A stretch of 64,000 bases of DNA from Escherichia coli. GTDB lineage: Bacteria > Pseudomonadota > Gammaproteobacteria > Enterobacterales > Enterobacteriaceae. A program made the translations under genes and the position numbers. This document shows, one piece after another, positions 16,858 through 20,553 of the stretch (positions are counted from its first letter, which is position 1; every line of letters starts with the position of its first letter). The notes below the pieces were generated by a model, which saw only the letters and a list, made by a program, of their open reading frames with translations, searched no databases and was not told where the DNA came from. Location: assembly GCF_044324875.1 (NCBI RefSeq), contig NZ_CP172185.1, one strand, 5' to 3'.

Positions 16858-18989
16858 TCAGAAGGTCACATTCAGCGTGGCCTGACCGTTATAGCCTTCA
16901 GCGCTGCTGCCGCTGACGCTGTGGATATAACCTGCCTGAACGCCCAGGGTGATATTTTCCCGGACACGGGCTTCCAGTCCGGCCTGCAGGTCCAGTGACG
17001 TACCATTCTGTGACGGTGAGAACGTCATGTTACTGCCGGCTGCGGCTGTACCCATGCTCATGTCCCCCCGGGAGCTGAAGGTGCGGATAACAGAAGGCTG
17101 TACCCACCAGTTCACCGGCAGTTCACGCACACTGTGTTTGGCACTGCCGCGCAGGGTGTCACGGGATGAGGTGCCTTTACCAAAGTTCATATCGTTGTGG
17201 CTGCCCAGACGGAAGCCGGCACGCACATGTTGTGCACTGCCATGCCCGAACTTCACATAACCGGCGTTATCCTGGCCGTCATCCAGGGAGAGTCCCTGCC
17301 AGGTGTACTGCAGTTGCGGCTCCAGCATCAGATTGTCAGTGATACTGAAGGGCAGACCGGTTTCCAGCGAACCCAGCCAGCCCCAGCCCCGGGCGCGGAA
17401 GTCGTTATTGTCCGATGAGGCTTTCATGCTGTGGCGGGTTCCTTGGGCCACAATGTCAGCCCACAGGCCGGAGGCGTTGTGTATCAGATTCAGGTATCCG
17501 CCCAGGCTGCCGGCATCATCCCGGACCGTGCCGGCACGGGAGCCGTCATCATCCTTAACATCAACGGAAGAATGGCCAGCAGCACCATATACCCCCGCGG
17601 TCACAGACATACCGGCAACCTCTGTTCTGAGCAGGTCACCCTCCAGACGGACGAAGCCATAGCTGCCGCTGCTTTCCGGCGTGGCTCCACGGGCAATACC
17701 GCCGTTGTTATCGTGACCGAGATGACCGCCCTGAATGCTGAGACGGACGCTGTTATTTTCACCGCTTACACCGGTCTGATGGCTGCGGGAGCCTGCCAGA
17801 ATCCGGTCATAGTCCATTGCCTGTGTCAGCATGGAGGCATACAGGGGGACTTCTGCACGATAAGCATTTTCACTGCGCAGATACCAGCTCTCATCACTGT
17901 CCCGGTTGAGGGAGTAGTTAAAGGCACCGGCCTGCAGCTTATTCCCCTGGACAAAGGCCCCTTCCTCCGTGGTGGCACCGTTAATGGCTTCCACCACCTG
18001 AATACCCTTACCGCTGGTCGCCAGCCCCGACGCACTGTTGCCGGCGTTCACCAGGTTCAGGATGGTTTTTCCGGTTGCCCTGCCACCGTCAATGACCAGT
18101 CTGTCAGCATTGTTCTGTGCCATATCCGGGCGTACACGCAGGCTGATGGTGCCATTCTGTCCGTTCAGGTTTTTCACTTTCAGGGTTGCCGGTACGAACT
18201 TCCCTGTGCGGGTGGAGGTGAAATGAATCTGTCCGGCATGGCTGAGGTTATCCACCACCGACTGCACCGTGGCGTTATCGGGAATATTCCAGGTGGCACC
18301 AGAGGCGAGAGTGACATTCGTGGGGTCAATGGCACCGTTCAGCACAGTGCTGCCGGTCAGCTTCAGGGCTGTACCGCGCTGAGCAATGACATCCGTGGTG
18401 ACGGTACTGTCGTTCAGCGTCAGCGTGCCTTCATTCAGGTTGACGGCTTTCTGGGTGAGTGTGGTGTTGCTGACAGTGAGTGTGCCACTTCCTGATTTTT
18501 CCACGCTGCCGTTACCGGTGAGAGAGCCTCCCTGCAGGAGTGCATCGCCTTCACGGATGGTCAGGGTATCGTTGTTCACCGTCTTCCCGGAAAGGGTAAG
18601 TATGGCGCCGTTATTCAGCGTGGTGGTGCCCGCCAGTGTGCCGCCCCTGGCGGTGAACAGTCCGCCATTTACCGTGGTATCCGTGGCCGTATCACCGGCG
18701 TTCAGCGTGAATGAACTGCCTTTTTCCAGCATCAGGGCATCCGCCTGACCGCCTCCGATACTGAATGCCTTTCCGTCGCTCCGGGTACCACTGACAGCGG
18801 CACCGGAATCGGCCAGCAGTACACCGCCATTTCCCATGGATACGGTGGTGGCGGTGCCACCGTTGCGGACATCCAGCGTTCCGCCATCATCCACGCGGGT
18901 ATTAGTGGCTGTGTGTCCGGTCAGCACATCCAGGCGTCCGCCATTTTCCAGTACGACATTATCAGCTTTACCCTCCACAACAGAGAATG
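16858..18989 (-). pseudogene. flu: antigen 43 (flu/agn43) autotransporter, 5'-truncated: about 711 C-terminal codons retained
   Basis: translation matches remembered Ag43 from ...[17 protein letters not shown] through the beta-barrel end ...GQATLNVTF; the first 17 codons of the track ORF derive from the IS end. Confidence 0.85.
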
Positions 18990-19061
18990 TGTAGTGGCAC
19001 ACTAAATTTGGCCACCTGATGAAAGGTGATATTCTCACCACAACACAAAACAGGTGACTTA

Positions 19062-19373
19062 ATGAACAAGCAAACCAAACGAACCTTCACCCCTGAGTTC
19101 AGGCTGGAATGTGCACAGCTGATTGTTGATAAGGGCTACTCATATCGACAGGCCAGTGAAGCGATGAATGTCGGTTCAACCACGCTTGAGAGCTGGGTAC
19201 GCCAGCTCAGGCGAGAGCGCCAGGGTATTACGCCCTCTGCCACACCCATTACTCCAGACCAGCAACGTATCCGCGAGCTGGAAAAGCAAGTTCGCCGTCT
19301 GGAGGAACAAAATACGATATTAAAAAAGGCTACCGCGCTCTTAATGTCCGACTCGCTGAACGGTTCACGATAG
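19062..19373 (+). CDS. IS3-family transposase OrfA (HTH)
   Basis: MNKQTKRTF...[18 protein letters not shown], typical IS3-group OrfA ending. Confidence 0.85.
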
Positions 19374-19492
19374 CCGCCAGACTAAGTGACAGCCACACGG
19401 TTGTCAGCCTGTGTTCTGCTCTGGAAATACACCGCAGCAGTTACCGGTACTGGCGAAAACGACGCGATACGGTTAATCCGGCACGAGTCAGG

Positions 19493-20239
19493 TTGTGCAG
19501 CGAAATACGCCGGGCGTGGAACCAAAGTCGGGGCTCTGCGGGCGCGCGCACTCTGGCTGAAATGCTGACTCAAAACGGCGTCCCGATGAGCCGTTACCGT
19601 GCCGGACGTCTGATGAAATATCTGAACCTGAGCAGTTGTCAGCCCGGAAAACATCAGTATAAAAATGCCCGTCAGGAGCATACCAGCCTGCCGAATCTGC
19701 TTGAGCGTCAGTTCGCAGTACCGGAGCCAGACCGGGTATGGTGTGGAGATATTACGTATCTCTGGGCAGGAAATCGCTGGTGCTATCTGGCGGTTGTTAT
19801 GGATCTTTTTGCCCGCAGGGTTATCGGCTGGAGTCTGTCAGCGCATGCCGATACCGCACTGATAAGCAGTGCCCTGCGGATGGCCTATGAGACGCGTGGC
19901 CAACCCCGGGATGTCGTGTTCCATAGCGACCAGGGAAGCCAGTATACAGGCCTTAAATATCAACAACTTCTCTGGCGTTGCAGAATAAATCAAAGCGTCA
20001 GTCGGCGGGGAAACTGCTGGGATAACAGCCCCATGGAACGCTTCTTCCGCAGTCTGAAAACAGAATGGGTGCCAACGAATGGTTACGCAGGCAAGGACGA
20101 GGCCCGGCAGCAAATTAATGATTACATATTGAACTACTACAACAGCGTCAGACCTCACCATTATAACGGTGGGCTGACGCCGGAAGAGTCAGAGAACAGA
20201 TACCATTTTTACTGTAAAACCGTGGCCAATATTACTTGA
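19493..20239 (+). CDS. IS3-family transposase OrfB (DDE catalytic domain); expressed by -1 frameshift from orfA, so the true coding start lies upstream near 19320
   Basis: DDE integrase core motifs ([27 protein letters not shown]). Confidence 0.8.
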
Positions 20240-20394
20240 CCACTACAAAACAGCATGGTCAGATAAAGTGGTTTTTCCCGGACATAAATGTTTCCCCTCT
20301 CTCATCCGCCAGAGAAGCATCAGTCCGTTGTGTGCAATTCCGTTCTGCATGATGAAGAGATTCAGCTGCCTTTTCGCAGACCATTAACCACTAT

Positions 20395-20440
20395 AAACGA
20401 TCGATAGTAACGATCGATACCTGTTTTATCGATCGTTTTA
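20395..20440 (-). promoter_or_regulatory. agn43-type phase-variation switch: three GATC (Dam) sites within the OxyR binding region
   Basis: AACGATCGATAGTAACGATCGATACCTGTTTTATCGATCGTTTT with GATC at 20399, 20412 and 20431; lies between the YeeP-like gene and the flu remnant. Confidence 0.6.
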
Positions 20441-20553
20441 TTCTATTAACGGCAGGGAAGTCACGCAAGAGAAAGAGGTGGGTATGAGGGGGGGGGGGTC
20501 ATGTTTTCAGTTGGTTAACGCAATGTAATCAGGCATTTCCCCTGGCAGAGTGT

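Follow-up and report, generated by a model that had tools for sequence, protein, structure and literature searches.

Here, we describe the agn43 (flu) locus in a 64,000-nucleotide stretch of Escherichia coli DNA (contig NZ_CP172185.1 of RefSeq assembly GCF_044324875.1), referred to below as the window. Three pieces lie side by side at this locus: a 3′ remnant of agn43 (16858..18989), an IS3-family insertion sequence (IS; 18990..20247), and the 5′ leader of the gene together with its Dam/OxyR phase-variation switch. A preliminary description made from the sequence had read them as an antigen 43 (Ag43) gene inactivated by the IS, with an adjacent deletion and an orphan switch left behind. We will argue that a null agn43 allele, produced by the IS3-family element and an IS-anchored adjacent deletion, is the best explanation of the locus and a highly probable one, and that the word "orphan" has to be qualified.

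The remnant lies on the minus strand and ends with a TAA stop codon at 16858-16860. No stop interrupts the flu frame between this TAA and position 18989, where the IS begins, and the in-frame codons at 16861..18987 represent residues 331-1039 of Ag43. These 709 codons align without gaps to an intact Ag43 of 1039 amino acids, with 707 of the 709 residues identical. In a profile search, the 709-residue product scores 1236 bits against NCBIfam NF033177 (Ag43/Cah family autotransporter adhesin; cutoff 1200). The start codon, the extended ESPR signal peptide and the N-terminal passenger that belong to a full gene are all missing; by the domain borders of K-12 Ag43, the missing passenger part would amount to the first ~277 residues. 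Since 988 nt of 5′ coding sequence and the Shine-Dalgarno sequence (SD) are gone, and no flu sequence is found to the right of the IS, the gene in the window is a pseudogene of the Ag43/Cah family and not a functional member. The flu-strand frame continues open for 100 nt into the IS and has as its sole in-frame starts the GTG codons at 19041, 19038 and 19002. A restart at one of these codons was considered as a route to a functional Ag43 and rejected: all three are internal to the IS and lack a convincing SD, and their product would carry no signal peptide.

The IS is an ISEc31-like element of 1258 bp on the plus strand, and its ends, TGTAGTGG...CCACTACA, carry imperfect terminal inverted repeats. 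Two reading frames lie in it on the same strand, orfA at 19062..19373 and orfB, the IS3-family transposase, which ends at 20239; an A6G slippery (frameshift) site is found at 19322, in their overlap. The programmed −1 frameshift between orfA and orfB, the DDE transposase profile, the TG...CA termini and the imperfect inverted repeats are those of the IS3 family. Using the NF033516 profile, orfB scores 268.7 bits (cutoff 160), with the N-terminal part matched by orfA, and the NCBI annotation pipeline (PGAP) labels the identical protein WP_085968792.1 as "IS3 family transposase, programmed frameshift". Over its whole length, the element shows 92.8% nucleotide identity to a copy named ISEc31 by PGAP. 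The boundaries of the IS are fixed by the hundreds of full-length copies, at least 99% identical, that are found in unrelated contexts in other E. coli genomes. The transposase gene runs antisense to flu; the left inverted repeat (IRL, 18990) adjoins flu codon 330 and the right one (IRR, 20247) adjoins the agn43 leader.

The extent of the loss was determined by alignment to the intact allele of strain EC332 (L001), in which the agn43 coding sequence (CDS) is located at L001 2021..5140. Window positions 21500..20248 correspond to L001 701..1954 (up to 1958), and positions 18989..16000 to L001 3009..5998, in both cases with 99.9% identity. As TGTA is common to the IS terminus and the target, the leader junction is ambiguous by 4 bp, and the missing segment relative to L001 is 1050-1054 bp. 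On the leader side this takes in the final 62-66 nt, and on the coding side the ATG and 988 nt (329.3 codons). The lost part of the leader holds the SD and a hairpin with a 12-bp stem (9 GC) followed by TTTTTTATT, which a terminator scan of the intact allele calls at L001 1962..1989. Many other complete genomes also match both flanks of the window at 99.9%, without the IS and with a span that is ~1 kb longer.

These results bear out the preliminary description in everything that could be measured. The flu frame indeed meets the IS at 18989, at about residue 330, and what remains is residues 331-1039. To the right of the IS there is neither an intact start codon nor an N-terminal passenger domain, and the ~150 bp said to separate the IS from the GATC sites is 151 bp to the first of them, at 20399. 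The loss of roughly 1 kb of 5′ coding sequence is now quantified as 1050-1054 bp, 988 nt of it coding, and the inactivation of Ag43 stands, with start codon, SD, leader terminator and 329.3 codons gone.

An explanation without any deletion would be that the locus is a short or otherwise alternative Ag43 allele that occurs naturally and starts near the IS, or that an artefact of the assembly has joined unrelated pieces. Ag43 alleles do differ in length, and the flu frame that stays open for 100 nt into the IS, with its in-frame GTGs, could be taken to provide such a start. However, both flanks are 99.9% identical to full alleles that hold the missing 1.05 kb, the GTGs have no convincing SD, and both junctions are exact in the independent assembly of BEN2908, a strain of avian pathogenic E. 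coli (APEC). Both the short allele and the artefact were rejected on these grounds, and we regard this explanation as next to impossible.

We now consider the flanks of the IS. Read in the orientation of the transposase, ATG precedes the element and AAA follows it, so there is no target duplication, in agreement with the earlier reading that no matching 3-bp repeat is present. This absence is meaningful, because the element normally duplicates 3 bp. Nine unrelated copies of the IS were compared, and seven of them lie between perfect 3-bp direct repeats (AAT, TAT, CTA, GCT, ACG, TGT and AAC), the AAC repeat belonging to a simple insertion in agn43 of strain 1428. The same IS is found in strain HL15 as a simple insertion at agn43 codon 154 with a GTG/GTG repeat, and strain CB7453 has an ISEc31 copy in agn43 with a GGG/GGG repeat. 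Counting this IS together with its relative ISEc31, 9 of the 11 independent copies have perfect 3-bp duplications. The insertions in 1428, HL15/SF10 and CB7453 are thus close counterparts of the one in the window, with the same or a related element (100% and 92.8% identity), the same target gene and the same orientation relative to flu. They are, however, simple insertions with perfect repeats (AAC, GTG and GGG) in an agn43 that is complete, whereas the window has unmatched flanks and a loss of 1.05 kb.

Two other copies of the IS also have no matching 3-bp repeats, namely those of FORC_069 (NZ_CP023061.1) and E2863 (NZ_AP018802.1). In FORC_069, the IS lies between two truncated genes, one of the GTPase family and one for a YpjA/EhaD autotransporter, a configuration suggestive of a further IS-associated rearrangement in the same kind of island. 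In every independent insertion of the IS or of ISEc31 in agn43 that was inspected (BEN2908, 1428, OkiPb01695, HL15 and CB7453), the transposase is antisense to flu. Insertions in this gene may be biased in orientation, although the sample is small.

The distribution of the arrangement was examined by a search with junction queries of 140 bp and 90 bp in 5426 complete E. coli genomes. Both junctions are found in identical form in one of the 5426, that of APEC BEN2908, and a single junction, the one at the leader, is shared by OkiPb01695 only. The RefSeq record of BEN2908 already annotates an "Ag43/Cah family autotransporter adhesin", described as incomplete and missing its N-terminus, beside an "IS3 family transposase". 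The truncation is therefore already flagged in public annotation, and it is an ordinary, recent and lineage-restricted pseudogenisation. Against the intact allele, the 1268 bp upstream of the junction differ only in the length of a G/C homopolymer, with 0 mismatches, and the 2990 bp downstream have 3. As the flanks and the IS are nearly undiverged from intact relatives, the event appears to be recent, and it is probably confined to the BEN2908 lineage.

The relation to BEN2908 extends beyond the locus itself. The window contains the tRNA-SeC gene (selC; 59796..59890, minus strand), the irmA region has been equated with module 5 of AGI-3, which is BEN2908's selC island (PMC4807369), and the window gives a single alignment of 9.5 kb with the BEN2908 record. 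Given the tRNA-SeC gene, the whole window is a selC-associated genomic island, and for these reasons it would be AGI-3 of APEC BEN2908 or a near-identical one. With AGI-3 (Chouikha et al. 2006) it shares the selC tRNA and the 9.5-kb match around the locus, and no difference is expected. The differences that are seen in the 9.5-kb alignment are mostly homopolymer deletions and CC[T]GG>CCCGG changes. We considered whether they could point to a different strain, but they do not speak for a separate event, since most of them are homopolymer or CCWGG errors of the R9.4 type; the BEN2908 assembly used R9.4 nanopore data (PMC12928451). The AGI-3 copy of Ag43 in BEN2908 is a null allele, and inventories of virulence genes should leave it out of their functional adhesins. 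Nothing at the locus challenges current understanding, and its significance is mainly one of bookkeeping.

One group of differences from the BEN2908 record is of another kind. At 17443..17704, within the flu remnant, seven substitutions are clustered in 262 bp, unlike the nanopore-type indels or CCWGG errors elsewhere. BEN2908 has three matching places, and a paralogous agn43 copy may have given rise to the cluster by gene conversion or mis-polishing.

In OkiPb01695 (NZ_AP042570.1, L004 6071..7328), the same IS is found in the same orientation at the same leader nucleotide (...CCATGCTGTTT joined to TGTAGTGG...). Its IRL end adjoins a truncated DUF4942 gene near a tRNA-Ser, and this flank maps to window positions 9053..8534, which makes the equivalent deletion ~11 kb. 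As a separate feature, 13 bp of the switch (TATCGATCGTTAC) are duplicated in tandem in OkiPb01695, at ~173-185 bp upstream of where the IS is joined, as a result of which there are four GATCs instead of three.

The arrangement in the window is the one expected of an adjacent deletion: the IS is kept, one flank is original, the other continues at a far-off point on the same molecule, and no duplication is present. Events of this kind are documented for IS150, another member of the IS3 family, in the long-term evolution experiment with E. coli (LTEE). None of the 14 deletion-associated IS150 events there had target duplications, and every one could be followed back to an IS that was already in place and to a later adjacent deletion, which often grew with time (PMC11708052). 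In both cases an IS3-family element stays at a fixed junction while adjacent DNA is lost with no duplication, and the deletions from the same anchor vary in size (1 kb in the window and ~11 kb in OkiPb01695). The differences are that the element here is ISEc31-like (IS3 group), that it resides in a natural isolate, and that the loci sharing the anchor are on backbones 5% apart. The window and its sister locus in OkiPb01695, with the same anchor nucleotide, thus fit the behaviour of IS150 in experimental evolution, and the locus provides a clean natural example of a deletion by an IS3-family element without target duplication.

An insertion in the leader followed by a deletion from the IRL end is favoured, because the fixed junction, the variable distal ends and the absence of a duplication match the IS150 pattern. 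In this scenario, the 5′ region of agn43 would first receive the IS, the most likely point being the leader nucleotide 4 bp upstream of the terminator hairpin. The DNA from the IRL end to codon 330, and with it one copy of the target duplication, would then be lost through a transposase-dependent adjacent deletion or another IS-anchored event of equal effect. The outcome would be that no Ag43 is made or exported, the SD, the ATG, the signal peptide and the N-terminal passenger being gone.

The same end state, one IS with unmatched flanks, would be obtained exactly by recombination between two copies. For this, the leader and codon 330 would each have received an IS, the two in direct orientation and each flanked by a 3-bp duplication; RecA-dependent recombination of the pair would then delete the 1.05 kb between them and leave a single hybrid IS. 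The gene has been struck repeatedly and independently (in 1428 and HL15/SF10, and by ISEc31 in many genomes), and the equal orientation that such recombination needs is the one seen in all observed agn43 insertions, which share one orientation relative to flu. Recombination between ISs is, moreover, listed as a frequent cause of missing duplications (PMC11708052). On the other hand, no genome with a single or a double insertion at these sites was found among the 5426, and neither a second IS copy nor a flu paralog that could serve as recombination partner is present in the window. Three events would also be required in a lineage whose flanks are almost undiverged, while all the IS150 deletion events of the LTEE fit insertion followed by adjacent deletion (PMC11708052). 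We therefore consider recombination between two copies to be unlikely, although it is the most serious competitor. The IS-mediated adjacent deletion of the preliminary description is thereby retained as the best-supported explanation, in view of the kept IS, the unmatched flanks and the 1050-1054 bp that are gone, with the reservation that two-copy recombination gives the same result.

It is important to point out that several observations weigh against an insertion in the leader and a subsequent adjacent deletion. The backbone beside the junction shared with OkiPb01695 has just 95% identity to the window, the nearest difference lying 44 bp away from that junction, and the two IS copies differ at 2 of 1258 positions (99.84% identity). 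With the backbones at 95% and the ISs at 99.84%, the two loci are not simple descendants of one insertion. The leader nucleotide, located 4 bp upstream of the hairpin and with TGTA shared with the IS end, may possibly be a target that the IS prefers, and the junction at the leader may then be the newer one. Another possibility is that the leader junction was spread by recombination between paralogous islands. Furthermore, no intermediate, that is, an IS with a 3-bp repeat at the leader with flu intact, or at codon 330, was found in the 5426 complete genomes, and an exact scan of a metagenome collection for the 23-nt junction gave no match. As no intermediate was found, the order of events and the end that served as the anchor can only be inferred.

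Some of these observations can be turned into a scenario of reverse polarity, in which codon 330 is the original insertion site of the IS (for OkiPb01695, the DUF4942 gene) and its IRR end then attacks a preferred nucleotide in the leader of the same molecule, deleting what lies between. The identical leader nucleotide and orientation on backbones 5% apart, together with ISs of 99.84% identity, argue for an independent convergence of this sort; in addition, only 4 bp separate the site from the hairpin with the 12-bp stem downstream of it, and TGTA is common to the site and the IS terminus. However, the repeats elsewhere (AAT, TAT, CTA, GCT, ACG, TGT, AAC and GTG) have no target sequence in common, no simple insertion at the supposed hotspot is found in the 5426 genomes, and recombination between paralogous islands could equally have spread one ancestral junction. 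Reverse polarity is thus associated with a very low probability.

We now turn to what is left of the control region of agn43. The retained 5′ leader (20248..20434, minus strand) is ~187 nt long, or 191 nt if the ambiguous TGTA is counted, starting at the G of GATC-I, the equivalent of the transcription start site (TSS), and ending where the IS begins. The Dam/OxyR switch occupies 20399..20445 on the same strand, with GATC-I at 20431-20434, GATC-II at 20412-20415 and GATC-III at 20399-20402, and with the −10 hexamer TAGAAT at 20445..20440 on the flu strand. The hexamer, which aligns with that of K-12, where the locus has been studied by experiment, and the three GATCs match K-12 column for column with conserved spacing, and the switch region lies within the 1268 bp that show no mismatch to the intact allele. 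That the switch survives, as the preliminary description had stated, is thus confirmed at the level of sequence. Upstream of it, a YeeP-like gene of the GTPase family (20554..21426, minus strand) belongs to the backbone of the island and is unaffected.

Repression occurs when OxyR binds the unmethylated GATC region, while Dam methylation blocks OxyR and leads to the ON state (PMC2909390). All the cis elements for Dam/OxyR switching are present in the window, and judging from them the promoter should still flip between a methylated ON state and an OxyR-bound OFF state. The agn43 promoter escapes a generic sigma-70 scan, the likely −35 element, TTGCGT by inspection, being below the threshold of the scan. 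For this reason, the identity of the promoter rests on the conservation with K-12 and on the 5′ end of IsrC, an annotated small RNA (sRNA) of K-12 whose first nucleotide is the G of GATC-I and whose end is at the leader hairpin (K-12 L013 918..1112). Judged by these ends, K-12 IsrC is the terminated leader transcript of agn43, and its start at the G of GATC-I places the TSS equivalent of the window at ~20434. In strain EC958, the transcription start of agn43 was mapped 228 bp upstream of the ATG (PMC4807369), and GATC-I is 253 bp upstream of the ATG in the reference allele. The leader terminator is lost in the window, and any IsrC-like RNA would read on into the IS.

The order of the genes in the window, GTPase, switch, agn43, yeeR and irmA, is the one known from agn43 of K-12 and from the agn43-yeeR-irmA operon of uropathogenic E. 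coli (UPEC) (Moriel et al. 2016, PMC4807369). The −10 element, the spacing of the three GATCs and the C-terminal two thirds of a protein of the same family are also shared. In contrast to those operons, the IS stands in the window where the leader's final 62-66 nt, the start codon, the signal peptide and the passenger up to residue 330 would be. Both downstream genes are intact and on the minus strand: yeeR (14221..16743) encodes 840 amino acids and is annotated as "YeeR family protein" in a matching genome, and the third gene of the operon is an irmA-like open reading frame of 151 codons (13690..14145) with a signal-peptide-like N-terminus, called "IrmA family protein" in BEN2908.

This has consequences for the notion of an orphan phase-variation switch. 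The agn43, yeeR and irmA genes are co-transcribed from the OxyR-controlled promoter as one operon (PMC4807369). Because yeeR and irmA remain intact downstream in the same operon, the label needs to be qualified; the promoter still heads a transcription unit, and "orphan" is an overstatement. In the ON state, the transcript would consist of ~187 nt of leader, the IS antisense to the transposase, a 2.1-kb flu remnant without its native translation start, and then yeeR and irmA. In CFT073, an IS inserted downstream of agn43a has a polar effect on irmA, and IrmA production is abolished (PMC4807369). By analogy with that case, yeeR-irmA is probably strongly down-regulated here by polarity across the IS and the remnant. 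The IS lies between the OxyR/Dam-controlled promoter and yeeR-irmA, and expression of IrmA from this island is probably impaired.

Another option is that the switch is still active in a more consequential way. In ON cells, a phase-variable antisense transcription through the transposase gene might then modulate transposition and, where it reaches yeeR-irmA, might give a subpopulation with IrmA but without the aggregating adhesin; separately, the leader nucleotide might be a preferred target or anchor of the IS. We consider this combination to be quite improbable. A weak terminator-like hairpin (6-bp stem and T-run) is present within the IS on the flu strand, at 19681..19665 (minus), and transcripts from the agn43 promoter would encounter it.

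Two smaller observations concern the IS and the region upstream of the promoter. The Rfam family RF01387, "isrC Hfq binding RNA", a Salmonella family, matches window positions 19058..19180 (plus strand), at the 5′ end of the orfA region, with 147 bits over the full model. This match was considered as a truncated leader sRNA and rejected, as it is located inside the IS and differs from the IsrC of E. coli K-12, which is the flu leader; the Rfam search for a truncated leader sRNA gave no match other than this one. From the position of the match, the RF01387 "sRNA family" would essentially correspond to the start of an IS3-family transposase transcript. Finally, the GTPase gene and the agn43 promoter are separated by a stretch that contains a G11 homopolymer (20488..20498; read on the flu strand, a run of C). 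EC332 has 12 such bases in a row and the RefSeq record of BEN2908 has 9, whereas K-12 and OkiPb01695 have no such homopolymer; the variation may be sequencing noise or real slippage.

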